From a virus (taxonomy: Duplodnaviria; Caudoviricetes): a DNA stretch of 64,000 nt. The stretch lies in IMG/VR virus record IMGVR_UViG_2627853916_000003, positions 1 through 64,000 of that record; one strand, written 5' to 3'. The notes under the pieces were generated by a model. The model was not told the origin of the DNA, did no database searches, and was given only the letters and a program-made list of their open reading frames with translations. The translations under genes were made by a program, and so were the position numbers. This document shows, piece by piece, positions 6,148-64,000 of the stretch. Position 1 is the stretch's first letter. Each line of letters opens with the position of its first letter.

Positions 6148-6527
6148 GTGCGACCTCAGTTAGTTGAGGCGCTTTTTACAGGGATGGGGATGATTTTTGA
6201 TGATAGCGCATCGCGTCAATGTGACCAATACGCTAATAAATCATTGATTTTTGTTGGATTAAATTTTTTCAGTCAAAGTTCAATTGCTTGCCTTTTAAAC
6301 ATGGTTACTCACTGAAAACACTAATTTTTCGCCTTGATAGCGTGCTGTGTGTTCGGAATAATCAGCTCGTCCCTAAAAATCTACTTCCTTAGATATTTTA
6401 GATTATTCATTAACTTAAATTGATATTGATAGTGGCGTTTTTTTGGGATGGGGAATAGGAAAGGAAAAAGTCGGGCGAAAGCTCGACTTTTTTTTTGGCT
6501 TTTATCCAAAAAATAAAAGGCAAGTTC

Positions 6528-49843: not shown

Positions 49844-50614
49844 CTACCCTAATGTAAATGGAGCTGCGGCAGCCTTAACAGCGAACTGGCCACCAGCATC
49901 GATATTGACGTTACCACTCGCTTTAATGGTCACTTCATTGCCCTCTAGGTTGGCTTTACCGGAGGCTTTTACGGTTGCATTACCACCCGCTTCGATGTTC
50001 GCATCGCCTTTCACTTTGATAGTTAGTGCGCCTCCAACTTGCTCCAATGTGTTCCCTGTTGAGCTGCGAAACGCATTGCCCTCGACGTGGATAACACATT
50101 GGCCATCTGGCGTAATTTCAATGGCCGTGCCGCTTTGGGTATGCGTAACTGAGTAGCCGCCTTGATGCGTGATGAGCTCGCGCAAACCAAATCGCACAAA
50201 GAGCGCATCTTTGCGGTCATAGGCTGGTGGCTCGGGTTCACCCTCGGCTCGTTTAGGCTGATAGGCTTCGCCGTTCACCTCGCTTGGTAGGTACGATTCG
50301 TAGTTAGGCGCGTAGTAAAGCGATCCGGTAATACGGGGATAACGGGTATCGCCATTGCGAGGAAAATCCACCCAAACCAGATCGCCTTTTTCCACTGGCA
50401 CGACTTGGCCACAACTCGGTTTTGCACCTAATGGCAGTAGAAACTCGGCAAAGGGGAGATCTTTATCGGGGATAGCATCCCAATAGCCAAGCAAGCGAAC
50501 CGATACCATGTACAAGCCTTTCGGATGGACAGGATTAACCACCTCGGCCTGATAGCTACCAAACAAGCGGTTAGTGACGTTGGTGCGTGTTCTGTTCTCT
50601 GACGAATCGCTCAT
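49844..50614 (-). CDS. Baseplate spike (P1 gp5/gpV-like)
   Basis: OB fold GDLVWVDF, beta-helix C-terminus. Confidence 0.85.
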   Translation of the reverse strand: MSDSSENRTRTNVTNRLFGSYQAEVVNPVHPKGLYMVSVRLLGYWDAIPDKDLPFAEFLLPLGAKPSCGQVVPVEKGDLVWVDFPRNGDTRYPRITGSLYYAPNYESYLPSEVNGEAYQPKRAEGEPEPPAYDRKDALFVRFGLRELITHQGGYSVTHTQSGTAIEITPDGQCVIHVEGNAFRSSTGNTLEQVGGALTIKVKGDANIEAGGNATVKASGKANLEGNEVTIKASGNVNIDAGGQFAVKAAAAPFTLG

Positions 50615-51588
50615 AGGTTTCGCACTCCTAACTCGATACGACACTGATACCGGTTCCCACGTTGGCAATGGGCGACACGGTTCATGATTTGTTTCTCTGG
50701 CATGGACTCATCCAGCTCGGTAGCGGGTAGCCGTTTATGGAATAGCACTGAGCACACCGAAAGAGGCGTAAAGGCGGTATTTCCGGTAAGTTCCACATCC
50801 AAAATAGGGATGATGGCCATGTGTTGATTATTCAGCGCCTTGGCTTGTGGAACGCTAACCATAACCATAGCGCCCGAACGTTTACCGCCTTGGAAGCCCT
50901 CGACGGTATCCCAAGAGGCATAGTTACGGTTAAGAACGCGCTCAAACAGGGCTTCCTCTCCGATAATGGAGTAGTTCGCAATGCTGTGCTCTGCTTCCTC
51001 TGGATTCGACTGTTCCAGCTTGAATTGCTCGCTCATATCCATGTTCTTGAGCGACTTAAAGTGCATAACACCACGGCAGATAAACGCTGCTGAACCGTAA
51101 TCTCTGGCCATTGTTCGAATTAAGCGAGACTTAGTGCCACCAGCGTTTAAATGGTACGTAGCGCCACGCTCAAAGCTGTCACATTCGATTTTTAGGTCGG
51201 GTAATAGCTCGGCCAGAATGTCTCTAGGCTGCATTTCGACAAAGAATCGAGGCGTTGTGACTGGCTCTTTAAGTAGGTGCGCGTCCTTTTGGAACGCTTG
51301 AACCGTTAGCATGCCGTCAGCGCTGGTGGACTTGGCCACAATGAATTTTTCAATCCAAACCTGATCGCCTCGTTCGTTCACATCGGCCATCGTGACCTCG
51401 ATCTCTGAACCGCGCTTAATCCCGTAGTCATCCCGATAAACGGCAGCCTGATCCATGATTTCCATTACCAGCTTATTGCCGTCCATCGAAGCGCACTCAA
51501 TGTAGGTAAACGAATGTACGTCCTCGATGGTGATGTCATTTCCGTTGGTGACAACTTTTTGGGCGAGAAAGTATTCTTTGTTACTCAA
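50611..51588 (-). CDS. Baseplate hub (P1 gp6-like)
   Basis: Synteny; probable TTG start at 51588. Confidence 0.75.
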   Translation of the reverse strand: MSNKEYFLAQKVVTNGNDITIEDVHSFTYIECASMDGNKLVMEIMDQAAVYRDDYGIKRGSEIEVTMADVNERGDQVWIEKFIVAKSTSADGMLTVQAFQKDAHLLKEPVTTPRFFVEMQPRDILAELLPDLKIECDSFERGATYHLNAGGTKSRLIRTMARDYGSAAFICRGVMHFKSLKNMDMSEQFKLEQSNPEEAEHSIANYSIIGEEALFERVLNRNYASWDTVEGFQGGKRSGAMVMVSVPQAKALNNQHMAIIPILDVELTGNTAFTPLSVCSVLFHKRLPATELDESMPEKQIMNRVAHCQRGNRYQCRIELGVRNL

Positions 51589-52342
51589 TGACTCGACCTC
51601 CCACGCCAATCGCGCCCTGACGGACAGTAATCGACTCGGCCTCATAAACCTCTGCAATCACTTCAAAAGAGATTGAGGAAGCAAACAGGCGAGTATTTTC
51701 ATGGTCTACTTCGGCGGGTTCGGTCATCGCATCTTTACGGCCACGGATCTCGATGCTGATTTCCATTTCAGTACCCGCGAGCATGGTTTTCGCTCTGAAT
51801 ACGTGCTTACGCTTGCCCTTGGTATGACGTAACCAAACCATTAAACCTAGCGCTAGGCGGCTAAGGGTAGACTGGTTCCAAGCTAGGGCATTAATGCGGT
51901 AGGTAAGCGCGACAAAGGACTTATTAACCACGGCATAAGGCTGGCCTTGCTCATTGGCCAGTTCGCCATAGTCAGCAATATCGACGTACTCCGCGCCATC
52001 AACAAACCCAATCACCGGATCGCGCGTGATATAGCAAACAGGCACAAGCTCATTGCGGTTCGCTTTCACCTTGTCGCCTAACTTGGCCGTTAACTTAGAT
52101 AGGAATGACACTGGATCGGTAAAGTTGCCGTAATAAATCTTTCTCGACTTATCACGGCCAACAAAGCGAGAAAACTCACTGTTCTCTCGCCGTTTAGTGT
52201 CAGTCACAACTAAGGAATCAAGCACGTTCTGGAAAAAGGCTGCCACCGCACGGTCAATATCGGTTAACTCTGTGTGTTCCACCTTGCCATCGAATGTCAC
52301 TACATCGCATGGGATTTCAAAGAACGCATCGTCCAGTTGCAT
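51581..52342 (-). CDS. Tail completion protein (P1 gp24-like)
   Basis: Synteny. Confidence 0.65.
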   Translation of the reverse strand: MQLDDAFFEIPCDVVTFDGKVEHTELTDIDRAVAAFFQNVLDSLVVTDTKRRENSEFSRFVGRDKSRKIYYGNFTDPVSFLSKLTAKLGDKVKANRNELVPVCYITRDPVIGFVDGAEYVDIADYGELANEQGQPYAVVNKSFVALTYRINALAWNQSTLSRLALGLMVWLRHTKGKRKHVFRAKTMLAGTEMEISIEIRGRKDAMTEPAEVDHENTRLFASSISFEVIAEVYEAESITVRQGAIGVGGRVIE

Positions 52343-52344
52343 GA

Positions 52345-52890
52345 TTAGTCCTCCAAATCGTCCAGCTCGTAATACTTACGGCCTTTCACGATAGTGATGC
52401 ACTTATCGCTTCGGTGTAAGGTCACATCGAACTTGTGGAAGTTGCTCGTTAGGATAGGGAGGTAAGCTGATACAGGCTCATTGCGCTGGTAGCCGTCTCG
52501 CGTTTTGCGGCCTTTACCGGATCGGTTGCCCTCATTGATTTGAATGACCGCGCAATCAAAATCAATCTTGGCCATGTCTGCGATCGCTGCGTCTAGGTCT
52601 TTGTGCATGTTAAGCACGTTCGCGCATAACATGACGCAAAAACGGCGTTTTGAGCTATCAATTTCGGCAATATTGTTTACTACGCCTTTCGCTTTCGAGT
52701 TCGGGTCATAGTGAGTGACCGTCATAATCTGCTTGTGGTAGTTAGTGAGGTATTCTTCTGTTAGGTCGGGAAACTTACCGCAACCAAAGTTAAGAATGTT
52801 TTTCGCGTATGACCAGTTAGGTGCAAGTCTGCTAAGGCACTTGGCACTGGCTGGCACTTGCTTTCGGCTAGTCTGTAATGTCATGCACAC
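52345..52890 (-). CDS. Small SAM-dependent methyltransferase-like protein
   Basis: ILNFGCGK motif I, YDP, CANVLN, GYQRN. Confidence 0.75.
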   Translation of the reverse strand: MCMTLQTSRKQVPASAKCLSRLAPNWSYAKNILNFGCGKFPDLTEEYLTNYHKQIMTVTHYDPNSKAKGVVNNIAEIDSSKRRFCVMLCANVLNMHKDLDAAIADMAKIDFDCAVIQINEGNRSGKGRKTRDGYQRNEPVSAYLPILTSNFHKFDVTLHRSDKCITIVKGRKYYELDDLED

Positions 52891-52944
52891 TCCAAAATTG
52901 GAGTGGCGCTTTAAGGATGGGTTGGAATAGGGCTGATATTAGCG

Positions 52945-53565
52945 TTAAAGCTCGATCACTTCACCGTCTTGTAAGTTTTCTTCCGGTTCTGGTAAGAAAT
53001 CCTCCACTGGCTCGGGTTCTGACTCAATTGAACTATCCGGCAATTCCGGTAAGTTCGCTGGTGGCTGATTAAAATCACGCATTGGTATGCAGATATAGAT
53101 CACGCCCACGTTCGCCGTGCCATAGCCAACGGCCTTATGTACGTACCACCACACGGTTCGTAATCCCTCGGCAGTTTCTTCATCCCATTCCAGCACACTA
53201 CCGATAGGAACATGGTGCGAAGCAATACGCAGCATTAGCGGCTCTAAGGACTCGCCAAGGTTTTCGTCGCCATCGTCCATCATGAAAAAGTTCTCTTGCT
53301 CATCTGGACAATCCAACAAAGCCACCAGCTCCGGATCGCTATAAGTGAGCGTGTCTTGGTTGGTTTCGAGCTCTAACACTGACTCGTTTTGGTAATTATC
53401 ATCCGTTGGTGCGGATTCTGGCTCTACAGGACGATACAGGGACGCTTCAAAGTGATCAGGTGATAGTTTGATAGCCTTAATCCAATCTTCCCTTAAAACG
53501 CGATTAAAGGGCTCATGGCCTTGGTATCGAACCTTTCTTGCTACAGGTTTAACTACGTCACTCAC
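52945..53565 (-). CDS. P1 gp7-like tail/neck protein
   Basis: GHEPFN...DW, VPIGSVLEW, WWYVH; synteny. Confidence 0.65.
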   Translation of the reverse strand: MSDVVKPVARKVRYQGHEPFNRVLREDWIKAIKLSPDHFEASLYRPVEPESAPTDDNYQNESVLELETNQDTLTYSDPELVALLDCPDEQENFFMMDDGDENLGESLEPLMLRIASHHVPIGSVLEWDEETAEGLRTVWWYVHKAVGYGTANVGVIYICIPMRDFNQPPANLPELPDSSIESEPEPVEDFLPEPEENLQDGEVIEL

Positions 53566-54713
53566 TTGATGATTCTCTCTAATTTGCTTGGTGTTACGTT
53601 CATCAATTTTGCGAAGTCGGCCAGCGCTTCACCCTTAGTCTTTCCTTGCAGTTTGTAGCCGTCATGGAAGTTCTGGAAGCCGACCTTAATCATATCGATA
53701 TAACCTTTCTTCTCGTTGGACTCCTTACGCAGTTTGCGCGCTTGGCGCTTGATGGTTTCGCTTTCCCGTTTCTGTTTGGCGATCTGTTTTTCCATTGCTT
53801 TCTGAGCGCGTAGATATTTCGCGTGTTCGCGCGTAGCGGCGGCCTTATCCACCACCGTTTTACGGTTGCGAGCGGCGGCTTTCTTCTCGCGTTCGTTGAG
53901 CAAGTACGTCTTGTTATCTGAGCCAAAACCAACACGGCGCGCTTGCTGCTTCATTTGGTTGGCCAAGATGCGTTGCCATGCCAGCGATTGCAGCATGGTT
54001 GTTGCCTTAAGAACGTGTTTACATGCCACACCGGACAATTCAGGGTTTCGGATTTTCGGGAAAGCAAACTCTTTAGGCGGCGCTATGCAGTAGTTACCCA
54101 TAGTGGCCAAGTATCGATACCAATACTGGTGACGGCCACAGTCGCAATCAAAGGAAATACGGCCAGCACACGCCAGTTGCACCGCTTGGTTGTAATCCCC
54201 GTTAGGCGGTTCGTGTAGTAGTTCATCCCACTGCTCAAAACGCACCTTTACTCGGTGTTCCTCATGTTTCGATACGCTTGAGGCTCGAACACGAATCAGC
54301 GCGATATTGTTCTTAATACCGAACATCGTGGCCTTGTGAATGCCTGTACCGTCATCGACACGGTTGTTTGCACGGTCTACGTCGATTTGACGCGAGTTCT
54401 TCACCAAAAAGGCGTAGGTGATACCCGCTGTCTTGCTGTCATAGACCTCTTTGTGTCGCTGGCGAGCCTTGTCGAACTTGATCAGGTCTTCTTTGGTAAA
54501 TCGTTGCCCTTTAGCCTTTTCGCCTAGCGCCTTTAACGCCTTGTTGGTTGGTTTGGTCAGCGTTGAGGCGGTCAGCGTTCGCTTGGCATTGCGGCGGTTT
54601 TTCTTTTGCGCCTGTTCAATCTTGTTGAATAGCTGGTTGAACTGCTTTTCATTGAGGCCAAGGCTGGCAAATGAGCCGTTATCCCGTTTTTCCGCTTCAA
54701 ACTTCTTCGGCAT
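53562..54713 (-). CDS. P1 gp25-like protein with SWIM-type Zn finger
   Basis: CDCGRHQYWYRY...ACKH. Confidence 0.75.
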   Translation of the reverse strand: MPKKFEAEKRDNGSFASLGLNEKQFNQLFNKIEQAQKKNRRNAKRTLTASTLTKPTNKALKALGEKAKGQRFTKEDLIKFDKARQRHKEVYDSKTAGITYAFLVKNSRQIDVDRANNRVDDGTGIHKATMFGIKNNIALIRVRASSVSKHEEHRVKVRFEQWDELLHEPPNGDYNQAVQLACAGRISFDCDCGRHQYWYRYLATMGNYCIAPPKEFAFPKIRNPELSGVACKHVLKATTMLQSLAWQRILANQMKQQARRVGFGSDNKTYLLNEREKKAAARNRKTVVDKAAATREHAKYLRAQKAMEKQIAKQKRESETIKRQARKLRKESNEKKGYIDMIKVGFQNFHDGYKLQGKTKGEALADFAKLMNVTPSKLERIIK

Positions 54714-54716
54714 AGG

Positions 54717-55046
54717 TTACAGCCCCATTTCGTCCATGAATTGACGCATAGAGCGGCGCACCCACGCTGCTGGTGGCAGTTTGATAGTTTGGCCAACGGG
54801 TAGCGGATTCATTGGGTCATCTACGTCACAAACCAGACTCACTAGCCAATCAAGCTCAACCGTGCCATAGGCGCGATAAGAGGCCAGATCGGCACGGTAG
54901 GTTTCATCAAGTCGAATGGTGTACTCAAACAGCTCGGTATTGCCCGAACGGTTGACGTATTCCATGACTTTCGCAAAGAAATGCGCCCGTAGAATATCGT
55001 CCTCGATGTTCTCTGCTGAGAGGCGGGATAACTTACTCATGATCAC
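54717..55046 (-). CDS. Baseplate protein (P1 gp26-like, LysM-like)
   Basis: YRADLASYRAYG...LPVGQTIKLP. Confidence 0.8.
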   Translation of the reverse strand: MIMSKLSRLSAENIEDDILRAHFFAKVMEYVNRSGNTELFEYTIRLDETYRADLASYRAYGTVELDWLVSLVCDVDDPMNPLPVGQTIKLPPAAWVRRSMRQFMDEMGL

Positions 55047-55665
55047 CTCCCATACGATACTTACCGTCTGCGATTAGCCCCGTTTTGGCCTTAAACAGTC
55101 CAAACGCGCGCGAGGCCATTTCCGGCTCTTTCTTGGGCTTGCGTAACATGCCAAACAAGCTCTTAAGCGTTACCGTGTCGTTAAGGTTGTCTTGTGTGGC
55201 CGCATAGACCACAAACATGAGCGCGTAGGTATCAGGGCGCAGTTCTGACCAGTCGATGTTGTACATTGGCTTGCCATCTGTTCCCCGTACTTCTTCCACG
55301 ATGGACGGCGACACTTCATAGCGGCCACCAGCATTAGGCGGGTAGGTGATAGCATTTAGGGATGAGAGATAGTTATAGGCTTCCATTGCCGACACAATGA
55401 TCGGTCTGCCTTTTGCGTCCAGCTCGGATAAGCGAACGGCGCGCCCATACTTCGCAAAATAGGGCGTAACCTCGTCCACCAGCACAATAAAACCGCCTTT
55501 TTTGAGCTTTTCTAGCTTCTTAGGCAAGGTAAGTTTGAGGCTCATTAAAGAGCGCTCTAATTGCTGGCATTCGATGATATGGAGTTGGCCATCATCCACA
55601 CCAGCAAGCATAAGCCGTGGCTGGCCGGATGATAGAGTGAGTACAGCTATGCGCTTTCGTGCCAT
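55033..55665 (-). CDS. P1 Pmg-type morphogenetic protein (possibly PmgR-like)
   Basis: IVLVDEVTP, GRPIIV, IDWSELRP recall a P1 morphogenesis protein. Confidence 0.5.
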   Translation of the reverse strand: MARKRIAVLTLSSGQPRLMLAGVDDGQLHIIECQQLERSLMSLKLTLPKKLEKLKKGGFIVLVDEVTPYFAKYGRAVRLSELDAKGRPIIVSAMEAYNYLSSLNAITYPPNAGGRYEVSPSIVEEVRGTDGKPMYNIDWSELRPDTYALMFVVYAATQDNLNDTVTLKSLFGMLRKPKKEPEMASRAFGLFKAKTGLIADGKYRMGGDHE

Positions 55666-55762
55666 GTTGTGACCTCTAAGCGCGCTTTTTAAGATGGGGA
55701 ATCTTGGTCAGTTTAACACCATTAACCAAGCTTTTGAGCCTCGTTAATGGTGTTTATGTTAA

Positions 55763-56437
55763 TTAATGTTCGGAATGCTTAGGATAAATATTTTCCAGTA
55801 GTTCAAGCGGCAATCCCGCCAGCTTATAGACCTTAAACAACAGCTCTATCTCTGTACCGTTGTAGATCTTCCATTGCGCCTTACCGCCGTATTTCCCTTT
55901 CGCATGGAGCGGTATCATATCTGGATACTGAGCACGCTTATCCGCTTCCAGTAGCGTGTCGTGGTGATAACAACACAAGGGTAATACATACGCATGCGCC
56001 CGTTCACCAACACGGCCAAACACATGATGTAAGGAAATCACCGGATTCTCTCGGCCATGCAGCCAACACGCAATACATGGTAAGCGGCCAATGGCATCCA
56101 TGATGCGCCTTTCCTCTGCTGTTGGCGTTCGGCCTTTCAATCCCTTACTGGCGATCTTTTTGGTTGGTTTCTTCACTACAGGCTTTGCCTTTTGGCGCTC
56201 GATGCGCTGTTGCTGTTTGTCACGCTGCTTTTTCTGGTATTCGGGATCATTTAAGCGCTCGATTTGGCGCTGACGCTGACGTTCTTGCTGCTGTAATTGC
56301 TTTTTGAAGCGCTTCTCCCGTTCCTCGGGATCATTCATCTTGGCGATTTGCTTTGCGCGCGCCCGTTCCATTGATTGTTTTTGCTTCTCTCGTTGTCTTT
56401 GAAGTTTCTCTGCTATTGTCAAAGCCATTAAAAACAC
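55763..56437 (-). CDS. ref: Ref, RecA-dependent HNH nuclease
   Basis: GLKGRTPTAEERRI...LPCIAC...SLHH...LPLC..HH as in P1 Ref. Confidence 0.93.
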   Translation of the reverse strand: MFLMALTIAEKLQRQREKQKQSMERARAKQIAKMNDPEEREKRFKKQLQQQERQRQRQIERLNDPEYQKKQRDKQQQRIERQKAKPVVKKPTKKIASKGLKGRTPTAEERRIMDAIGRLPCIACWLHGRENPVISLHHVFGRVGERAHAYVLPLCCYHHDTLLEADKRAQYPDMIPLHAKGKYGGKAQWKIYNGTEIELLFKVYKLAGLPLELLENIYPKHSEH

Positions 56438-56537
56438 CTACTATTCGCTTTGCTCATGTTTCACATTTGCTGGTGGAACACGAAAAGGCTGGTAACTCGA
56501 ATTTTTGCTGATTCGAACTGTTTGCTAAGGCCAGCCG

Positions 56538-56568
56538 CAAAAAAACCGCGTTTATTCGCGGTTTTTTT
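56538..56568. terminator. Bidirectional terminator
   Basis: AAAAAAACCGCGtttattCGCGGTTTTTTT. Confidence 0.75.
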
Positions 56569-56575
56569 GTACCTA

Positions 56576-56764
56576 TCAAAAGTAACTCTCAATCAAAACC
56601 CGATGGCATGGTTTGCCCTCATCGTTGCGAAGTCTCTGCCCTAAAGTGACGATCTTCATCAACTTGCCCTCATAGTCCCAAGGCTGGTTTCGAGTTAAGC
56701 ACTCTTTGGCTCGTTTAAGTGCTGGCGAGCCAACTAAGAGATAAACGGCCTTTCTAGGTTTCAT
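56576..56764 (-). CDS. Hypothetical protein
   Basis: ATGA overlap with the aphA-like gene; GGAGG SD. Confidence 0.6.
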   Translation of the reverse strand: MKPRKAVYLLVGSPALKRAKECLTRNQPWDYEGKLMKIVTLGQRLRNDEGKPCHRVLIESYF

Positions 56765-57294
56765 GCAGCGTCCTCCGTAGCAATGCTTGAGGAAGTGATC
56801 ATTGATAGCGAACGTTCGGCAAACTTAAGCTCTGCTTTACGCATATCAATGTCGCGCTCTACATGCAGTGTGAAGTTGTCACAGAACACGCCTTTCTCTT
56901 TCTGGTGCGCGTTCAGCTTCTCTTTAAGTTGAGTGATTTCTTGATTGAGTTTTTCAATGTACGACTTGAAGTAGGTCTCGCTGCCGATTTCCAGCATCAC
57001 CGATGCAGGACAGCGAATGATAGACAGGTCGCGGCACGTAGATTCGTTGCGTAAAAGGTCAAGAACGCGCTCACCATCTTGAGTTAGTGTGTAATTCTTG
57101 CGGTCTGGTTTGCCGTCTTGAGCTTCCAGTTCGTGTGATACTAAGCCCTTTTCAGCCATGCGATTTAGTTCGCGGTACACTTGCTGGTGGCTGGCTTGCC
57201 ATGCGCCAGATTCAGGCATGGATTTGTTTGTTAAGTCGTAACCAGTTTGTGTTTTTTGCTCAAGAATTGATAGAAGTAGATTACCCAAAGTCAT
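56761..57294 (-). CDS. AphA-like PadR-family transcription factor
   Basis: TGYDLT...WQASHQQVYRELNRM..GLV...Q.GKPDRK.Y..TQ.G closely matches Vibrio AphA; 177 aa. Confidence 0.88.
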   Translation of the reverse strand: MTLGNLLLSILEQKTQTGYDLTNKSMPESGAWQASHQQVYRELNRMAEKGLVSHELEAQDGKPDRKNYTLTQDGERVLDLLRNESTCRDLSIIRCPASVMLEIGSETYFKSYIEKLNQEITQLKEKLNAHQKEKGVFCDNFTLHVERDIDMRKAELKFAERSLSMITSSSIATEDAA

Positions 57295-57310
57295 AGTTAG
57301 TTACCTTTTG

Positions 57311-57769
57311 TTATTGTTGCCAAATTTCACCTGAGTCCTCGTCAATAAATCCATGACATAGGTACTCTCTACTTGTTGAGTAATGCGTAAGTCTTCCCTT
57401 TAACGCTTTTTTGTTGCGGTTATGCCAGTGCTCGTATCCGGCAGTAAACGCATATTGGTTATTGTTGTAATCTGCATAATGCAGATCTGAGCCATTGCGA
57501 GCCTCACTTACTCCCGCCGACCAGCTTGCTAGAAAATCGTCACGCTCATTGAGTTTGATGGCTTGTCGCTCATCATCATGCACCCCAAGTAGCGTGATAA
57601 TTCCTAGCCCTTGCATGCGGTCAATGACGGTCGTATCGAAATAGCCGATGTAGATTTCATCGTGTGGGATAAATTCTACTTGTGGTGGCATTTCGTAGAC
57701 CGTGCCATCTAGCGGTAGAGCTTCCATAAGCTCTATGAGTAGGCTCAACTGGTTTTTTGGAATTGCCAT
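57311..57769 (-). CDS. Hypothetical protein
   Basis: 152-aa ORF in the same operon as the aphA-like gene. Confidence 0.65.
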   Translation of the reverse strand: MAIPKNQLSLLIELMEALPLDGTVYEMPPQVEFIPHDEIYIGYFDTTVIDRMQGLGIITLLGVHDDERQAIKLNERDDFLASWSAGVSEARNGSDLHYADYNNNQYAFTAGYEHWHNRNKKALKGRLTHYSTSREYLCHGFIDEDSGEIWQQ

Positions 57770-58016
57770 TGGCCAGCGCCTTGTCTAGTTGTTTAACCAC
57801 ATCAGCGCACATGGAAAAGCGAGGCATTTCATTTCGTATCGCTTTTTCGTCTGCGCCCTCAATAAAGGCTTTCGCCTCATCTGCACTCCCTAACACCCAA
57901 CTCACACATACGTTCGCTACCGCGCCAGCGTTGCGGCTAATGGCCATCGATACTGTTGCTCCGTGGTTAGACAGGACAATAGTGCCTTTGCTGGTATTGA
58001 ACTTTTTTATGGTCAT
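57657..58016 (-). CDS. Hypothetical protein
   Basis: Probable start MTIKKFN; overlaps the next ORF. Confidence 0.5.
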   Translation of the reverse strand: MTIKKFNTSKGTIVLSNHGATVSMAISRNAGAVANVCVSWVLGSADEAKAFIEGADEKAIRNEMPRFSMCADVVKQLDKALANGNSKKPVEPTHRAYGSSTARWHGLRNATTSRIYPTR

Positions 58017-58221
58017 TGGTCGATAATTTATGAACCGTGTTCGGAATGTTGGAAAAAAGACTACCACAACAAATTTTGGATATGCAACCACTAATTTGCA
58101 CCTTAACATCAAAATTTTATAGCTCGATAAAAATTTGCGTGTTCGGAATAAAAAGGTGTTGCCATAATCCAAAAATGGGATTAGATTACGCCCCAAGCAA
58201 ACAGTCGGAGCAGTTTAAGAA

Positions 58222-58650
58222 ATGAATCTAATTCACGGATTTTGCAGCACTAACCCACTAATTAACCCTGATATGGTGCTAATGCAGAGAGGCACATACG
58301 CCCACCAGCTAAAGCGACTTTTCACTGACAGCAAACTACGTGTTGGCCATCTTTACGAAATGAGAACGACAGCAAGTAGCAGCGAAAAATACTGGGAATC
58401 ATTGGCCGCCTATTTTGATGAAATCACTTTTAAAGCCAAACAAAGTTATACAGAAAGTGATTCTCAGTATCACTTTTTAACTTACTTATCCGATGCGGTT
58501 TATTTGATAGAGAAAAAGGGCATTGATTGGGATGTGCTTATTCACTCTTTGATTTTGGATAGCGACCAAACGCAAGAAACCCAAGATCAACAGCTACGCA
58601 ATATCAGCCACCTTTTGAAAATGACACAGCAATACGCAGAGCAGTTTTAA
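58222..58650 (+). CDS. Hypothetical protein
   Basis: First gene of the rightward operon. Confidence 0.65.
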   Translation: MNLIHGFCSTNPLINPDMVLMQRGTYAHQLKRLFTDSKLRVGHLYEMRTTASSSEKYWESLAAYFDEITFKAKQSYTESDSQYHFLTYLSDAVYLIEKKGIDWDVLIHSLILDSDQTQETQDQQLRNISHLLKMTQQYAEQF

Positions 58651-58652
58651 CG

Positions 58653-58850
58653 ATGGTGACGATCTACCCATTAGACGAATTTATTAAAGCGAATTTCCGA
58701 AGCAATTCGGAGTTTGCCAGGATTCACGGCGTTGTCTTAAACACGGTTTACAAGATGAACGCCAATGGCGTCCATGCCAGCGGTGACAGAAACAATTACA
58801 CCCTTTGGTATGGCAAGAAACACGGCAGTGAACAACAGCAATTGTTCTAG
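58653..58850 (+). CDS. Small Cro-like HTH protein
   Basis: SNSEFARIHGVVLNTVYKM. Confidence 0.5.
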   Translation: MVTIYPLDEFIKANFRSNSEFARIHGVVLNTVYKMNANGVHASGDRNNYTLWYGKKHGSEQQQLF

Positions 58851-58888
58851 TTCCACCAGCAATTAAGAAACATCAAGAGACAGAGAGC

Positions 58889-59338
58889 ATGTTGAATATG
58901 ACTTTATTCGAACTGATCACCCCTAGCGACCCATACACGTTCTACGCGCCTAACTTAGAAGTGGCAGCGGTCGTCGCTTACTCACTATCAAGCCATTACG
59001 GCGCTGTTTCAGTCGATAATCCAGAAGAACGCTCACCGATCCTTTTAGGTTGGGGAGAATGGTTTGAAGAACGAAACATCGATGGCGAGTGGATGAAAGC
59101 AAACCATCTTGTTTTGGCCGATGCCTTTGATTCGTTAGTGATTGGCAAGCCGGAGAAACGCGCACAGTTCGACGCGACATTGGCCGCACTATCTGACAGC
59201 CAGAAAGAGGCATTCAAGCGCGAACACAACGACAAGAAGCGCTCAAGCTTGAACAATATTGCCAGCGTTGCTTACGAGTACGCAGCGAAGTGCCGAGAAC
59301 TGCATAAACGAGAACAGGGTAAAGCTAATGCTATTTGA
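58889..59338 (+). CDS. Hypothetical phage protein
   Basis: FELITPSDPYTF...RSSLNNI. Confidence 0.7.
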   Translation: MLNMTLFELITPSDPYTFYAPNLEVAAVVAYSLSSHYGAVSVDNPEERSPILLGWGEWFEERNIDGEWMKANHLVLADAFDSLVIGKPEKRAQFDATLAALSDSQKEAFKREHNDKKRSSLNNIASVAYEYAAKCRELHKREQGKANAI

Positions 59339-59771
59339 GAAACTAAGTAAGGGCGATGTGGTTTTTGTTAGACGTACCGTTAATGTCAGCTCCGGTTGGT
59401 GTACTCGAACACTAGGCACATTCTTTATCCCTGCCGAGGTTACAGCGGTTACTAAGGCACGTTTTAAGGCAATGGTACTACGGGACGTTTTAAGCCCTAT
59501 TGAAATGACGTTTAGACGCGATGATGGCGTAGAACATCGAAGCGGTAGCCAACGCCTAATCGCATTCAAGCTAGGCCAAAACACGCAAGATGGCGTTGTC
59601 ACTGACCAGCTTAAAGAATGGCAAGAATGCTGCAAATTGGCTCGGGATATTCGTGACGTTCGCCACCTAGTGAACGTTAACGATATTGACCCTATGCAGA
59701 TGACCCAAGCGCTATGTGATGAAGTGTTGGCGGTGATTGCCAAGCTACCACGAAAAGAAAACGGCTATTAA
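59328..59771 (+). CDS. Hypothetical protein
   Basis: Probable start MLFEKLSKG. Confidence 0.65.
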   Translation: MLFEKLSKGDVVFVRRTVNVSSGWCTRTLGTFFIPAEVTAVTKARFKAMVLRDVLSPIEMTFRRDDGVEHRSGSQRLIAFKLGQNTQDGVVTDQLKEWQECCKLARDIRDVRHLVNVNDIDPMQMTQALCDEVLAVIAKLPRKENGY

Positions 59772-59909
59772 CTTTCCATTGGCTGCCAGTTCGCTGGTGG
59801 CCATCCCTATCCTGATTTATGGCCACTTTAGATGAGCGCCAACGGATAGATGCAGTTATAAGCTGTGGTGTATTATGTACACCCTAACTACCCAAAAGAT
59901 ATACAGAAA

Positions 59910-60836
59910 ATGACTTTCTTCAAAACCAAACTTGCTTCGATTTTATTGTTAGCACCAGCTTTGGCTATGGCTAAGACTGACGTTATCGATATACCCGCAG
60001 AACAGAACAGTCCGCGGCATTACAGTTGGAAGATAGATGAGGATACGACATTAACTCTACTTCGATACTGTGACCCTAAATGGGACAAGAATGATTTTTT
60101 CGTTTTTTACAAGGAAAGCTACTGCAACAACCGCGTCTATGTTCATAGCACTATGGCAGATGCCGCAAAAACGCGCTTTGGTAATAGCTATGCCGTTACG
60201 ATTAGCTATGGAGAAACGAGTGTCAGGTCTGAAATTTATTTGAGTACGCCTAGCCATAGTTCTATGGATATGTTTGCTCGCTCGCTATCTCAGGAGTCCG
60301 ACCCTGTTGTTAAGGTGAGTGGGTATGGTCAAATATCCGATGACAAGCTAATTAAACTGGATGGTCTTAAACGCGTTAAAGTTCCAAAAGGTCTGATTGA
60401 TAGCGACCCAACATATTCAATTGTTAAGTCCGTTCGTTTGATTGGATACCGTGATGCCTACAACGCTATTCATAATGGCGCTAAAGCCGAGTTCGATGCC
60501 AAGTATGATGAGCAGAACCTAAGCAATGCACTAATGCTGCTTATGAGTGTCATAGTGGCTCTTGGTGGAAGTTATGTGACTTGGAAGTACGTGTTAAAGC
60601 CAAGTGCGAATAAGCTAAGTGAAAAGAGCAAAGAAGTGGCTGATAAGCTTGAGAAAAGCAAGGTTAGGAGGATTGCCAAAGAAGAAGCGATTCGACAGAC
60701 CGTTCGTACCACAATCGAAAACGACAATGCTGCGATTACTGCACTAAAGGCTCAGATTAAAGAAGCTCTTGATAACAATGACGCTAAGACAGCAAAAATT
60801 CTGATGGAAGCGTTAGATAGGATGGAAAACAGTTAA
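59910..60836 (+). CDS. Exported/membrane protein
   Basis: Signal peptide (ALAMA), one TM helix, C-terminal coiled coil. Confidence 0.75.
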   Translation: MTFFKTKLASILLLAPALAMAKTDVIDIPAEQNSPRHYSWKIDEDTTLTLLRYCDPKWDKNDFFVFYKESYCNNRVYVHSTMADAAKTRFGNSYAVTISYGETSVRSEIYLSTPSHSSMDMFARSLSQESDPVVKVSGYGQISDDKLIKLDGLKRVKVPKGLIDSDPTYSIVKSVRLIGYRDAYNAIHNGAKAEFDAKYDEQNLSNALMLLMSVIVALGGSYVTWKYVLKPSANKLSEKSKEVADKLEKSKVRRIAKEEAIRQTVRTTIENDNAAITALKAQIKEALDNNDAKTAKILMEALDRMENS

Positions 60837-60854
60837 CCATTAAACCACCAGCAC
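60825..60854 (+). repeat. 30-bp direct repeat, copy 1
   Basis: GAAAACAGTTAACCATTAAACCACCAGCAC. Confidence 0.75.
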
Positions 60855-60872
60855 CAGATAAGGAACAGAGCA

Positions 60873-61424
60873 ATGATCATTAACTACGCCTTAAGTACCG
60901 TGCCGTTTGATGATGATATGGAATCGTGTGTAAGCACTATGACGGCAAGTGTGTTTATCCTTGGCGACCAAGGCGAAGAAACCGAAGTCGCAACGTGTGA
61001 TTTCTACATAGTGGACTTGGCCAGAGCATCAAACATTACGAACTGTCACGACTTGCTGGATTTAGACGGCAGCATTTATCACTTCACTAAAATTCTTGAT
61101 GATGAGTACATGCTGGTGGATGAGATCGAAGAACTGAATGATGAGCAACAATTAGGACTCTATTCAGAACCAGATCGCCTTATTGTCATCCACGAACTTA
61201 AGGTTAAGAAAGAGCACCGAGGGAACAAGTATTCCAGAGCGCTAATTAAGGACTTTATTGAACGCTTTACCACTGATAATGACTTGGTTGGATTAAAAGC
61301 GTATCCATTGGAAAATTACACTGAGGAAACCGTAACATCGTTACGTGGTTACTACGAACAATGTGGTTTTGTAGATACAGGTATCGATGACCTCATGCTG
61401 TTTGACTCGCTTCAAAGAGACTAA
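60873..61424 (+). CDS. GNAT-family acetyltransferase
   Basis: LKVKKEHRGNKYS, LRGYYEQCGF. Confidence 0.8.
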   Translation: MIINYALSTVPFDDDMESCVSTMTASVFILGDQGEETEVATCDFYIVDLARASNITNCHDLLDLDGSIYHFTKILDDEYMLVDEIEELNDEQQLGLYSEPDRLIVIHELKVKKEHRGNKYSRALIKDFIERFTTDNDLVGLKAYPLENYTEETVTSLRGYYEQCGFVDTGIDDLMLFDSLQRD

Positions 61425-61462
61425 TAAAAATAGAAACATCAAAATAATAGGTATCAATAGAA

Positions 61463-61729
61463 ATGCGTAAAATTGTTTGTTTATTACCGTTGTTACTGTC
61501 TGGTTGTGTCGCTGTTTGGGGACAGTCTTATAACATCGATGTTGCAAACGAGGACTATGTACAAGTTAACTACGATTCGGCAGTGATCAACTATAAGGCC
61601 ATGCTTAGCGAGGTTGCCGCGCATTGTGCCAAGTACGATAAAGATTACGTCAATGACAGTACGATTTTGAACGGTTGGGGAATCACAATGGCCGTTTATC
61701 GCTGCGTAGAGAAGAAAGAGAACAGTTAA
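61463..61729 (+). CDS. Small lipoprotein
   Basis: Lipobox LSGC. Confidence 0.8.
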   Translation: MRKIVCLLPLLLSGCVAVWGQSYNIDVANEDYVQVNYDSAVINYKAMLSEVAAHCAKYDKDYVNDSTILNGWGITMAVYRCVEKKENS

Positions 61730-61747
61730 CCATTAAGCCACCAGCAC
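61718..61747 (+). repeat. 30-bp direct repeat, copy 2
   Basis: GAGAACAGTTAACCATTAAGCCACCAGCAC (28/30 identical to copy 1). Confidence 0.75.
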
Positions 61748-61808
61748 GGTGGCTTTTTTTGCGTCTAAAGCTAAAATGCTACTAATTGCTTACAGAGAGG
61801 AATGACGA

Positions 61809-62057
61809 TTGAAAGAGTTTGATTTTGCGCTGGTGGCCAAGTTCCAAGGCGAATTGAATGCAGACACGCTTTGCGAGCTGTCTAACGCGCTCTTTGAAGT
61901 TGGTGCCAATGATTGCACCGTATCCGCATCTGGCAGCGATATTCGTATCGAGTTCGACCGAGAAGCTGACTCATACGAGGACGCTGTTAAAAGCGCGATG
62001 CAGCAAGCTAATCAAGTTAGCGGCCTTACTGCGCTCAGTGTGGCCAACAGCCAATAA
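61809..62057 (+). CDS. Antitoxin-like N-terminal domain protein lacking HTH
   Basis: ALFEVGANDC...EFDREADSYEDAVKSA. Confidence 0.5.
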   Translation: MKEFDFALVAKFQGELNADTLCELSNALFEVGANDCTVSASGSDIRIEFDREADSYEDAVKSAMQQANQVSGLTALSVANSQ

Positions 62058-62069
62058 CGAGGTTGCCCT

Positions 62070-62318
62070 ATGACGACTCAATTAAAAGAGTTTGACGCAT
62101 CCGACTACTTAACCGACCAACAGACTATCCAAGCCTATATCGATGAAGCGGCAAGCACTGGCGAACCCGCGCTTATTGCAGAAGCCTTGGCCGCTATCGC
62201 CAAGGCAAAGGGCATGGATAACACCTTACAGCCACCCAATGACCCATCTCTGTCCTCACTAATCTCGCTGGCCAACGTGTTAGGCGTATCAATTCAGTTA
62301 GGCATTAACGGGAAGTAA
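62070..62318 (+). CDS. Addiction-module antidote-like protein with shortened HTH
   Basis: FDASDYL...AYIDEA...ALAAIAKAKGM...PSLSSL...LGV. Confidence 0.7.
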   Translation: MTTQLKEFDASDYLTDQQTIQAYIDEAASTGEPALIAEALAAIAKAKGMDNTLQPPNDPSLSSLISLANVLGVSIQLGINGK

Positions 62319-62597
62319 TTTATTCCAGTTGTTCGGTTTGGCCGAACTACTCATTCAATAATCCGTTCGGAATCTATCCAATTTAGTTTCATTTCTCTAC
62401 AGAACTGAAACTAAACGCATGGCGCGCCTTAATGGTGCGCCTTTTTTTGATCTAAATCACGCCAGAAATAAACATAAATCAATCAATTTATATCTATTTA
62501 TAAAAAATGTGTTCGGAATGAGAAAAAGAAGTGGTATATTCAACTCGTTCCTAATCCCCTTGAACTTTCAGGGGAAGTACAGAAAACGGAGACTACT

Positions 62598-63344
62598 ATG
62601 ATTGTCTATAAAGTTGGACGTTACACATTCTCTGCTGACCTTTGCCGATACTCAAAAGAAGTCGGCCAAGAGGGCAACTACACACTAGGCTTTTGCACGG
62701 TCGAGTACCTACCTAAAGGCAATAGCCTATACCACCCTGAACCGAAGATTATCGACGCTAACAAACCATACGACATTATTGAGTTTGACCCTAAAGCGAA
62801 GATCAACGGCAGCCTGGCAATTCAGTGCGAACCAGATAAGTACAACGCGACACAAGCGGAGGAAATGAGCTGGATTGCCATCAAGATTGACGCACCAAAT
62901 GGCGACCTAGACGGACTTATCCGAAAAGTGGCCAAAGAACGCGGTATCGAGCTTACTGAGCGCGTTATGGATCAAACCAGAGAAAGACTATTCACCAAGT
63001 ACGCAACGCCTCAATACAGCGATCCGGCAACGGTTGGTGCGCTTGTTCGTAACACCTCAACCCTTAAGGCCGATTACTACTACAAATCGCGTATCAATGC
63101 GCTGGCTAAGCACTTCAATACGACCGTGCGACAAGCTGAATGGCTAGTATTTCTCGATCGCGGTTCGAAGATGGCCAAACGTGACGATGGCTGGCATCCA
63201 ACACTACTCGACCTAGACGAACCAGCCACAGAGAAAGAGCTTAATGAGCTGGTGGACGCTGGCGCAATCGCCTTTGATGCAGAGAGCAACACGTACACCA
63301 ACACTGAAAAAACAACCCTAGCACTAAGAGAGAACTACCTGTAA
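62598..63344 (+). CDS. Hypothetical protein, possible C-terminal wHTH
   Basis: 248-aa ORF with GGAG SD. Confidence 0.7.
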   Translation: MIVYKVGRYTFSADLCRYSKEVGQEGNYTLGFCTVEYLPKGNSLYHPEPKIIDANKPYDIIEFDPKAKINGSLAIQCEPDKYNATQAEEMSWIAIKIDAPNGDLDGLIRKVAKERGIELTERVMDQTRERLFTKYATPQYSDPATVGALVRNTSTLKADYYYKSRINALAKHFNTTVRQAEWLVFLDRGSKMAKRDDGWHPTLLDLDEPATEKELNELVDAGAIAFDAESNTYTNTEKTTLALRENYL

Positions 63345-63356
63345 GAGAGCACTACC

Positions 63357-64000
63357 GTGAATAAGCAAATAAAAATTTACGTACTGACTACCATGAACAA
63401 GGAAAGAGTTGAGTTCATGAAAAAGTTACTTAAGAACGTTAACTTTGAATTTGTGGAATCACTAGGCACGGAAGCCTTAAAAGAGCTTGAGGCGAAGTAC
63501 GCCCGTAAATCGCTGCGCTTTAGAAAGAAAGCCTTAATGCTTGGCGAACTTGGCGCATTCAAAACACACGCTATGGCTTGGGAACGCATCGCCAAATCAG
63601 GTGAAGCGGGGATTATCATCGAGGATAGCGCTGATTTCGTTCATGACGCATCGATCTTGCTAAGCGACGAAGTACGCAACCAAATCAACAATTGCGGCCT
63701 CGTATCTTTTACTGATTACGAGTACAAGCTGCATCCAGATAGACCAACGCTATTTAGCGATATTCCATTACGCAAGGCTTTCCCTATTCGTTGTTATGGC
63801 ATGACCGCACATCGAGCCTACCTATTGCTATCAGCATTAGACAAATCCGGCATGGTAATGCCTGTAGACCGTTGGCTGGCGACTCCGAAGCTATCCGGCC
63901 TGTTTGGCTTTGTCAGCAACATTGGCGTAGCGATTCGCCGTCACGGCATAACCAGTATAGCGAACGCGAGACGAGGCAAAGCGTCTTACAACCCGCTTAA
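63357..64000 (+). CDS. Glycosyltransferase family 25 (runs off window)
   Basis: Hand-translated, not in the track: IYVLT..NKERVEFM, GELGAFKTHAMAWERI, IIIEDSA, PVDRWL. Confidence 0.8.
   Translation, partial: MNKQIKIYVLTTMNKERVEFMKKLLKNVNFEFVESLGTEALKELEAKYARKSLRFRKKALMLGELGAFKTHAMAWERIAKSGEAGIIIEDSADFVHDASILLSDEVRNQINNCGLVSFTDYEYKLHPDRPTLFSDIPLRKAFPIRCYGMTAHRAYLLLSALDKSGMVMPVDRWLATPKLSGLFGFVSNIGVAIRRHGITSIANARRGKASYNPL

Follow-up and report, generated by a model that had tools for sequence, protein, structure and literature searches.

Does a phage of Vibrio carry its own version of the host regulator AphA, and would such a protein act on the host's promoters or on those of the phage? The question is raised by a padR-type gene on the minus strand (56761..57294) of bases 1-64000 of the IMG/VR virus record IMGVR_UViG_2627853916_000003; these 64,000 nucleotides (nt), the whole stretch analysed, are called the window below, and the full record measures 91,867 bp and is rated 93% complete. 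In many vibrios AphA governs biofilm and motility as well as secretion systems and virulence genes (PMC3440409; PMC13670528), and a first-pass annotation had read the gene product as a phage-borne AphA homologue that may bind host AphA boxes while escaping host control, or act as a dominant negative. The core idea of a phage AphA homologue with a speculated role in quorum sensing is already known, having been published in 2026 as a hypothesis. New here are a four-gene operon behind ATTCCGAAC boxes, the Ala-Ala tails of the clade to which the protein belongs and the lack of AphA-box enrichment in the phage. We arrive at a two-domain PadR regulator that belongs to a sister-type lineage, neither an orthologue nor a recent capture of aphA, and that probably works as an autonomous homodimer under phage control.

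The gene, called padR hereafter, and the parts of its product are as follows.

56761..57294 (stop codon included), minus strand: padR-type gene for a two-domain PadR subfamily-1 regulator, phrog_13512; based on the list of open reading frames (ORFs), Pfam, PHROG, the structural model and the ratio of nonsynonymous to synonymous substitution rates (dN/dS)
57049..57294, minus strand: N-terminal 82 residues, with PF03551 on residues 7-78, modelled helices at 3-13, 18-29, 36-48 and 72-82, and strands at 52-59 and 62-70
57157..57201, minus strand: recognition helix motif WQASHQQVYRELNRM, residues 32-46; translation and alignments
57091..57120, minus strand: wing motif QDGKPDRKNY, residues 59-68; translation and alignments
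56764..57048, minus strand: C-terminal helical domain of the dimerization type, residues 83-177, with modelled helices at 96-103, 106-134 and 140-176; also seen by hhalign
56764..56769, minus strand: C-terminal Ala-Ala codons, residues 176-177, a candidate ClpXP-type degron; clade-wide count and model confidence (pLDDT) of the tail

This ORF is a functional gene for a 177-amino-acid (aa) two-domain winged-helix transcription factor of PadR subfamily 1. It starts with ATG in the ORF listing of the window, and the PadR protein that had been read from this interval is indeed there: the ORF is exact, WQASHQQVYRELNRM and QDGKPDRKNY are both present, and PF03551 (PadR), the winged helix-turn-helix that this subfamily has at its N terminus, is found on residues 7-78 with 55.9 bits (cut-off 27; E 4.2e-15). 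The same Pfam scan of the product returned no C-terminal family at E<=0.1, PF10400 included, and NCBIfam returned weak generic PadR models alone, each far under its cut-off. Membership in phrog_13512 extends over the full length (residues 4-173 aligned with positions 8-177 of the 178-position profile; E 2.8e-70, 236.7 bits). Comparison with two relatives at 91% nucleotide identity gave dN/dS values of 0.144 and 0.128, which indicates purifying selection.

Among proteins of solved structure, V. cholerae AphA (1yg2) is the best sequence match (E 2e-20, query residues 1-133), followed by Bacillus subtilis PadR (E 5.9e-9). BLASTP against the AphA of V. diabolicus gave 39% identity over 135 residues and nothing past residue 133. 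Thirteen of the 15 recognition-helix residues and eight of the 10 wing residues agree with AphA, and the AphA motifs quoted for comparison, WKASHQQVYRELNKM and QEGKPDRKVY, are visible both in the 1yg2 alignment and in the AphA proteins of Vibrio genomes. To place these agreements, identities were computed half by half on a 157-row alignment made of the window protein, six close relatives, 15 AphA-labelled sequences (13 of them from named Vibrionaceae genomes), five proteins of phages or viruses and 130 of the 148 representatives P0026-P0173, the remaining 18 having been left out because their length lay outside 150-215 aa. SHQQ[VI]YR occurs in 75 of the 130 PadR representatives and GKP[DN][RK]K in 63; because two-domain PadR proteins carry them so widely, the quoted motifs are not diagnostic of AphA and instead characterise a wide AphA-like subfamily.

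The two halves of the protein behave differently. Its N-terminal 82 residues are 48-52% identical to canonical AphA (the 13 named rows) and equally near to proteins other than AphA (P0042 and P0049, 53%; P0061 and P0026, 52%); capture of an AphA N-terminal domain, giving a chimera, was for this reason rejected, the identity to AphA being no higher than that to several non-AphA PadRs. The C-terminal half is 14-20% identical to AphA versus 25-34% to representatives that align over their full length (P0027, P0029, P0043, P0037 and others). The first-pass annotation had described a conserved DNA-binding half and a diverged dimerization half, and this description holds, with the addition that the diverged half, about 16 residues shorter, is still homologous: hhalign of 30 phage-type against 26 AphA-type sequences gave a probability of 100 and E 4.6e-47 over 164 columns spanning both domains, with a gap of about 16 residues in the phage type between the long C-terminal helices. 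The AphA-type C-terminal domain itself, marked by PF10400 and high conservation, is lacking in the padR product, where remote homology persists; the AphA-type proteins P0020-P0024 carry PF03551 together with PF10400.

It is also in the C-terminal half that the dominant-negative proposal, by which the product would titrate host AphA into inactive heterodimers, has to be judged. The two proteins have the opportunity, since a V. diabolicus genome (G001) carries both a chromosomal aphA (179 aa) and the phage-plasmid padR on separate contigs, so that they share a cell in at least one strain; both belong to PadR subfamily 1, and their C-terminal domains are homologous by profile. The surfaces that would have to pair, however, share little: a C-terminal identity of 14-20%, a BLASTP alignment that ends at residue 133, a deletion of about 16 residues between the long helices, and PF10400 on AphA-type proteins and not on the padR product. 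Heterodimers would be unlikely because the C-terminal identity is so low, and we regard this mode of action as extremely improbable.

Where, then, does the protein belong? A word-indexed search found 25 related proteins among 61 candidates, 17 of which, in V. parahaemolyticus, V. alginolyticus and V. diabolicus and in many cases encoded on contigs of 100-140 kb, have 84-95% identity, after which identity drops to at most 37%. An exhaustive search of 1.84 billion representatives gave 1061 matches at E<=1e-3, of which the sole one at E<=1e-30 was the protein's own cluster and the runner-up had 46% identity and 96.6 bits. In a species-level search (one genome per species, 185,579 species), the best 80 of 142 stretches were kept; these include a single close copy (92%), on the 116-kb V. 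diabolicus contig CCKK01000024, and their remaining Vibrionaceae matches are chromosomal AphA. By tblastn, 93 of 50,697 phage records match, all below 60% identity and 91 of them Vibrio phages, with the Mardecavirus group (SSP002, MAR10 and others) at 31-34%; megablast of positions 50000-64000 of the window against the phage collection gave no match. Relatives are encoded at 31 IMG/VR loci.

In a FastTree phylogeny of the 157 rows the padR product falls in a 65-row clade (Shimodaira-Hasegawa-like support 97) with the PadR proteins of Mardecavirus SSP002 and MAR10 and of the viral loci L085, L087 and L088, the 18-row AphA clade standing on the opposite side of the tree. Named members of the neighbouring clades come from Gallibacterium anatis and from Vibrio paralogues of V. 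cidicii, V. navarrensis and Vibrio sp. D404a. A second tree (IQ-TREE, LG+C20+F+G4), computed on 66 of the 157 rows chosen to represent all parts of the first, placed AphA within starred clades with supports of 99/91 (30 rows) and 99/96 (24 rows); the window clade (6 rows, 100/100) lies outside both and joins an unresolved set of phage-type lineages. Forcing the window clade together with a 14-row AphA clade cost 48.9 log-likelihood units and was rejected by the approximately unbiased (AU) test (p-AU 0.019); this grouping was written down after inspection of the tree, though it equals the hypothesis of the earlier annotation. The product thus does not cluster with the AphA orthologues of Vibrio, Photobacterium, Enterovibrio and Grimontia, nor does padR have the chromosomal locus and upstream autoregulatory AphA box of an aphA gene. 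Of the label "AphA homologue", what survives is that the protein is phage-borne, is homologous over its full length and has AphA as its closest solved relative; orthology, for which the phylogeny had been proposed as the check, does not, and the motifs offered for it lack diagnostic value. Sequence comparison therefore points to a separate, phage-type lineage. Its members of known name or context are all on Vibrio phages, phage-plasmids or phage-sized contigs, and they diverge fast: no two clade representatives share more than 50% identity, and syntenic alleles in P1-like elements go down to 37%.

The predicted structure bears on what the protein may do. An AlphaFold2 model based on a 30-row alignment (predicted local distance difference test score, pLDDT, 92; predicted template modelling score 0.79) has a wing of two strands between a first set of three helices and a fourth helix, followed by three helices at the C-terminal end; over the final seven residues the mean pLDDT is 64. 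Foldseek against the PDB matched it over its full length to B. subtilis PadR on its operator (5x11; template modelling, TM, score 0.74), smu.1604c and VanR, the entries matched including 5z7b. AphA (1yg2; TM 0.74 by query and 0.77 by target, root-mean-square deviation 3.1 Å, 27% identity) has the top identity and target TM in that list, yet ranks 11th by E-value. PadR subfamily-1 proteins are described as measuring about 19-22 kDa with a separate C-terminal domain of long helices for dimerization (PMC5728393); the long-helix domain is present in the model and in the Foldseek matches, and the modelled fold is that of a generic subfamily-1 PadR.

The same fold could suggest a classical ligand-sensing PadR, that is, a local repressor responsive to a small molecule in the manner of PadR/PadC, VanR or LmrR. 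The best Foldseek matches are indeed the ligand-responsive PadR and VanR, and PadR regulators usually act locally (PMC5728393), but the surroundings of padR do not fit, with no decarboxylase, efflux or detoxification gene nearby and with familyless phage genes and a Ref-like nuclease gene as neighbours. We consider such a role very unlikely.

The DNA-contacting residues are more informative. In the complex of B. subtilis PadR with DNA, bases are contacted by Tyr20, His38, Ser39, Gln40 and Tyr42, the wing adds Lys64, Leu65, Lys67 and Lys68, and Tyr20, Tyr42 and Lys67 are the binding hot spots (PMC5728393). Mapped by alignment, the corresponding positions of the padR product are Y19, H36, Q37, Q38, Y40 and K62-P63-D64-R65-K66, and AphA has the identical residue at all ten. 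H36, Q37, Q38 and Y40 are invariant in the alignment of the phage-type clade, and the other contact positions are invariant or nearly so; as to the hot spots, Y19 and Y40 are invariant and R65 replaces Lys67, as it does in AphA. Because these residues are identical, AphA-like half-site reading is a fair supposition, and binding to host AphA boxes is plausible. The spacing of the half-sites depends on the diverged dimerization domain and therefore does not follow from the contact residues.

This identity is an argument for a host-directed mimic of AphA, in which the product would bind as a homodimer to host AphA boxes (the aphA, opaR/luxR/hapR and qrr4 promoters and the regulon) and, free of Qrr, LuxR and AphA feedback, would impose or perturb the low-cell-density programme for the benefit of the phage. 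Besides the ten contact positions and the near-identity of helix and wing, such a role would agree with the distribution of the clade over unrelated Vibrio backbones (P1-like, Mardecavirus, ParA-bearing elements and integrase-bearing proviruses), with the share of Vibrio phages among matching phage records (91/93) and with co-residence with chromosomal aphA in one strain; the same speculation has been published (PMC13670528). Yet many non-AphA PadRs have the same motifs and contacts (75/130 and 63/130), which thus are no proof of AphA-box specificity, the half-site spacing would be set by a diverged dimerization domain about 16 residues shorter, and a clade evolving so fast (<=50% identity, 37% between syntenic alleles) contrasts with the high conservation of AphA and its boxes.

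Does the phage itself contain sites that such a DNA-binding half would read? AphA is a repressor of luxR/opaR/hapR. The box to which it binds is ATATGCA-N6-TGCATAT (PMC3440409). With up to three mismatches, the window contains two matches versus 3.33 expected, at 652 and 14029, neither near padR; the second piece of the record (L002) contains 2 versus 1.14 expected and the third (L003) 0 versus 0.40, which amounts to no enrichment. The TGCA-N6-TGCA core occurs at two places, or four both-strand matches versus 6.1 matches expected. Two intergenic 20-mers of the second piece, AGTTGCATTATTTTGCATAT and AGGTGCATCATTGTGCATAG (L002:9083-9102 and L002:15236-15255; record 73083-73102 and 79236-79255), are alike at 16 of 20 positions and differ from the AphA box by two to three mismatches each, the latter being followed at a distance of 25 nt by an ORF of 303 aa without known family. 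As a conserved operator the pair was rejected: close relatives repeat the first alone, and neither is present in the P1-like relatives G004 and G005. A search for a shared dyad in the DNA preceding 21 PadR genes of other viral loci found no common motif. In a group of viral contigs of 78-82 kb (L099/L100:2900-2975), the strong palindrome (AAAT)CCTGTAC-AAT-GTACAGG(ATTT), which does not resemble the AphA box, precedes the PadR gene by about 60 nt and is a candidate for the operator of this PadR allele.

For the mimic, this dearth of an AphA-type or other shared operator in phage genomes counts in favour, and on the whole we hold that role to be possible and rather doubtful. The phage sequence neither supports nor contradicts binding of the padR product to host AphA boxes. 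The related suggestion that padR stands outside host cis-control accords with our scans, in which no AphA box was found near padR and no LuxR/OpaR-type box in the window, where just 0.01 was expected, so that the latter scan says little.

A different element does stand ahead of the gene. Two direct copies of a ATTCCGAAC(AC) box lie in the promoter region of the padR operon, and the ATTCCGAAC 9-mer recurs over the record.

58039..58047, minus strand: proximal ATTCCGAAC(AC) box, promoter region of the padR operon
58141..58149, minus strand: distal ATTCCGAAC(AC) box, promoter region of the padR operon; direct copy
ATTCCGAAC in the window: 2945, 3027, 6351, 46988, 48192, 55768, 58039, 58141, 62365, 62511
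ATTCCGAAC in the second piece (L002): 6615, 8644, 9485, 13507, 15129, 17323
ATTCCGAAC in the third piece (L003): 865, 885, 7808

The 19 copies in 91,867 bp compare with about 0.7 expected; by piece, 10, 6 and 3 copies compare with 0.49, 0.16 and 0.06 expected, and no shuffle reached these counts. Most copies are extended to ATTCCGAACAC. Most operons of the phage have the box ahead of them. Thirteen of 18 listed sites are followed on the same strand, after 21-287 nt, by an ORF of at least 80 aa, and the genes behind the element include those for the portal, the endolysin, the small terminase, phrog_1014 and the phrog_1837 tail cluster, among others. The two padR-operon boxes lie 270 and 372 nt from the gene orf152 and about 25 and 125 nt from orf119 (both listed below); the box-to-ORF listing does not include orf119, which starts from an internal ATG, hence the orf152 distances for these boxes. 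The same two copies flank a promoter of the form TTGCAT, 17 nt, TAGAT-like in the related loci L094, L102 and L119, and L096 has ATTCCTAAC. The P1-like relatives G004 and G005 contain 21 and 11 copies, and there are none in SSP002, in two PadR-bearing proviruses or in two distant PadR-bearing P1-like plasmids. Absence from these five PadR-bearing records excludes ATTCCGAAC as PadR's own general operator. By its distribution, which resembles that of late promoters, it is a candidate lineage-specific promoter or operator element and, because it stands ahead of the padR operon, this operon would be wired into the phage's own programme, a placement that speaks against the host-directed role, padR being inside a phage operon behind a phage-wide box.

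The operon and its borders comprise the following elements.

57657..58016, minus strand: orf119, perhaps the operon's first gene; shares 113 nt with the start of orf152, read in a different frame
57311..57769, minus strand: orf152 (phrog_8101, E 6.2e-48), 16 nt upstream of the padR start; dN/dS 0.05-0.09
56576..56764, minus strand: orf62, small gene with a 4-nt overlap with the padR stop; ORF list, and a homologue annotated by the Prokaryotic Genome Annotation Pipeline (PGAP) in NZ_CP082321.1
56538..56569, both directions: 13-bp perfect hairpin with A and T runs, a two-way intrinsic terminator between orf62 and ref; sequence scan
55763..56437, minus strand: Ref-like RecA-dependent nuclease gene (ref), conserved downstream neighbour; PF16786, E 8.4e-26
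58017..58221, no strand assigned: divergent promoter region between the padR operon (minus) and orf142 (plus); comparison of relatives

Gene order on the minus strand is thus orf119, orf152, padR as the third gene and orf62, then the terminator and ref. All four genes tested are under purifying selection (dN/dS 0.05-0.14), and orf152 is the best conserved of the block; an Atlas search with it gave a best score of 0.84 and no family, and Pfam returned nothing for the neighbours of padR other than the Ref-like nuclease. Homologues of orf119 are found at the protein level in the same place in L102, L095/L096 and L119 (E 1.6e-32 to 1.1e-7), with a 56-aa remnant in L094; PGAP leaves it without annotation in NZ_CP082321.1. 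The promoter (TTGCAT, 17 nt, TAGTCT/TAGAT-like) is conserved in L094, L102 and L119. The order orf152, PadR, Ref, phrog_1837 is kept at all five P1-like IMG/VR loci, over which identity ranges from 70 to 95% for orf152, 47 to 96% for Ref, 47 to 93% for phrog_1837 and 37 to 92% for PadR, which is among the most variable genes of this conserved block. Contigs from RNA libraries of two studies give a weak hint of a transcription unit from box to terminator: their ends fall at 56434-56468, a 1,593-nt contig of run X13 covers 56468-58017 plus 45 nt, part of this overhang containing a GTTCGGAAT box, and a contig of run X11 starts at 56462, while the long contigs of runs X6 and X1 over the region are perhaps DNA.

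The small gene at the end of the operon invites another explanation, namely that PadR and the product of the translationally coupled orf62 form a sensor/anti-regulator pair controlling a lysis-lysogeny or plasmid-maintenance decision. Transcription-factor/small-ORF pairs of linear plasmid-phages and LftR/LftS of Listeria would be modules similar in spirit. The 4-nt overlap of orf62 with the padR stop and its purifying selection (dN/dS 0.10-0.13) fit such a module, as does the site in L102 and L119, where an unrelated ORF of 74-75 aa overlaps the padR stop in the same way; at other viral loci the PadR gene directly precedes parA-like (L097, L112) or xis/int-like genes (L103, L109), or an NdpA-like gene. 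Conversely, L095/L096 have no small ORF at the site, searches of families, Atlas and PHROG gave no match for orf62, the known modules have divergent transcription where padR and orf62 share a strand, and no immunity repressor on which the pair could act was identified. We therefore see a module of this kind as quite unlikely.

The end of the protein itself may tell more about its regulation. Counting the window family once, which leaves 59 rows of the 65-row clade, an Ala-Ala end is found in 23 of 59 clade rows and in none of 92 others, 18 AphA-clade rows among them (Fisher p 1.7e-11); 35 of the 59 end in Ala, and the alanine content would lead one to expect Ala-Ala in 0.55%. Fifteen rows of the 66-row tree carry the tail, which takes 11 or more changes to explain and is therefore not a single chance event passed on by descent. 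In the ssrA tag the terminal Ala-Ala carboxylate is the main determinant for ClpXP, and related degrons target other proteins (PMC7652416). The count is a sign that many clade members, the padR product included, may be built to be short-lived via a ClpXP-type degron.

Returning to the element that carries the gene, a PHROG scan of 57 window ORFs and 44 ORFs from the rest of the record found P1-type virion and lysis proteins (portal, sheath, tube, baseplate, tail fibres, holin/endolysin/Lyd, and the terminase in the rest of the record), DarB-, Hdf-, DdrA- and PmgB/C/G-like proteins, the Ref-like nuclease and the partition proteins ParA/ParB. With a 10-kb query around padR, 14 plasmids of PLSDB match, 12 of them from Vibrio; near-identical DNA is found on circular 93-217 kb plasmids of V. 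alginolyticus and V. diabolicus, and two circular 93-kb V. alginolyticus plasmids cover 84% of the query at 93% identity, where PGAP labels the product "PadR family transcriptional regulator". Because P1-type and ParA/ParB genes coincide with matches to circular plasmids, the carrier is a P1-like phage-plasmid and not an integrated prophage: an element of about 92 kb in the Vibrio alginolyticus / parahaemolyticus / diabolicus group. Tail-gene DNA alone led to two distant P1-like plasmids of Vibrio, both with a clade member beside the tail genes, interrupted in one of them by a single TGA stop, and a padR-type gene was present in every P1-like Vibrio phage-plasmid record examined.

Three further features of the carrier were noted. 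The DarB-like methyltransferase/helicase appears as two abutting plus-strand ORFs (6495-10763, 1422 aa; 10760-13246, 828 aa) that match positions 45-1377 and 1454-2270 of the 2278 of phrog_1685, perhaps because the gene is split or frameshifted, or because it naturally exists as two genes. A MazF-like growth inhibitor of 116 aa (phrog_1936; L002:16276-16880, minus strand), preceded by an 84-aa ORF, is likely to form with it a toxin-antitoxin addiction pair of the plasmid state. In the third piece, a 100-aa HTH_3 (Cro/C1-type) regulator (L003:7094-7396, minus strand) faces small plus-strand ORFs (L003:7943-8363), with the ATTCCGAAC box at L003:7808; the arrangement is a candidate for the phage's immunity switch, and none of the record ORFs scanned was recognised as a P1 C1-type repressor.

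The explanation that we find best overall, and judge probable, is that of an autonomous phage-lineage PadR under phage control. Its time of expression would follow the phage's own transcription programme, it would homodimerize through its short C-terminal helical domain without pairing with host AphA, the homodimer would occupy dyad sites with AphA-like half-sites as repressor or activator, and the Ala-Ala end would expose it to ClpXP and keep it short-lived. That its targets are mainly phage or plasmid promoters is a tentative addition, to which we would give somewhat less than an even chance. Several observations weigh against this explanation. A host-directed role would explain equally well or better why the clade is spread over unrelated Vibrio phage backbones and missing from non-Vibrio phages. 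The search for an operator found none, the promoter region of the padR operon containing no dyad shared among relatives, and ATTCCGAAC, absent from five PadR-bearing records, is not PadR's site in general. The RNA-library contigs cannot rank genes or give expression timing, and DNA carry-over may account for them. Mardecavirus proteins and the PadR alleles of L102, L119 and L096 do not have the Ala-Ala tail. As to the phylogeny, the AU group was named post hoc with a p of only 0.019, the trees are unrooted and so leave room for an ancient capture of a host aphA-like gene, and most clade representatives are metagenome records, so that the notion of a phage-borne clade comes from the named or contextual subset.

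A bolder combination would have the whole phage-type clade consist of short-lived, Ala-Ala-tagged AphA mimics, exchanged among unrelated Vibrio phages and phage-plasmids, expressed from the programme of the carrier and overriding the density switch at host AphA boxes, which we regard as speculative and on the unlikely side. Were it true, LuxR/OpaR-dependent functions, for example, would be shut off during phage development, and vibriophages would have a second, independent route beside VqmA-Phi. More generally, if the same DNA is read under phage wiring, a mobile element could change how V. alginolyticus and V. parahaemolyticus populations behave as groups in aquaculture and on algae. The question posed at the outset is in any case sharpened: the product represents a separate phage lineage and not a captured aphA, and its motifs are no proof of AphA specificity.

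Among known systems, AphA itself (1yg2; V. diabolicus copy L092:1501-2037, minus strand) is a two-domain PadR of subfamily 1 of nearly the same length (179 aa versus 177 for the padR product); it differs in that the padR product has a C-terminal half about 16 residues shorter, is encoded in a phage operon on a phage-plasmid with no AphA box upstream, and ends in Ala-Ala, which none of the 18 AphA-clade rows does. Bacillus subtilis PadR (5x11) shares the fold, the dimeric two-domain architecture, the Tyr/His/Gln/Tyr contacts and the wing, at 21-22% identity, with Ser at position 39 where the padR product and AphA have Gln, and with a KLEKK wing where KPDRK is found here; it controls a phenolic-acid decarboxylase gene, and none is present at the padR locus. 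The Mardecavirus PadR proteins (SSP002 gp019, MAR10_016) join the padR product in its phage-type clade in either tree, are 31-34% identical to it from end to end and have a helix of the ASHQQVYRE type, yet reside on a siphovirus backbone of 76-79 kb and have no Ala-Ala tail, and SSP002 has no ATTCCGAAC boxes. VqmA-Phi of vibriophage VP882 offers a parallel in concept: a plasmid-like Vibrio phage encodes a diverged homologue of one of the host's quorum-sensing transcription factors, in this case from another protein family and, unlike the padR product, with experimentally defined ligand and targets.

The nearest published relative is the regulator of "prophage.8", a mitomycin-C-induced element with hdf-/ulx-like genes from a Sargassum-biofilm Vibrio (PMC13670528, Environ Microbiome 2026;21:123; preprint 10.64898/2026.03.26.714470), from a group that had earlier listed a viral aphA among biofilm genes (PMC11295528). 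The element is treated there as a prophage, and the terms "phage-plasmid", "ClpX" and "degron" do not occur in that article. Its regulator, a phrog_13512 member called a "prophage-encoded AphA homolog", is 34.78% identical to host AphA and structurally similar to it by AlphaFold3, has a predicted C-terminal homodimer, sits in a 34-sequence tree with two clades and is speculated to influence the lysogenic switch or quorum sensing, the element itself being abundant on Sargassum (PMC13670528). The padR gene described here shares with it the PHROG family and the same neighbours, the flanking Ref-like nuclease and P1 genes of the Hdf/Ulx type.

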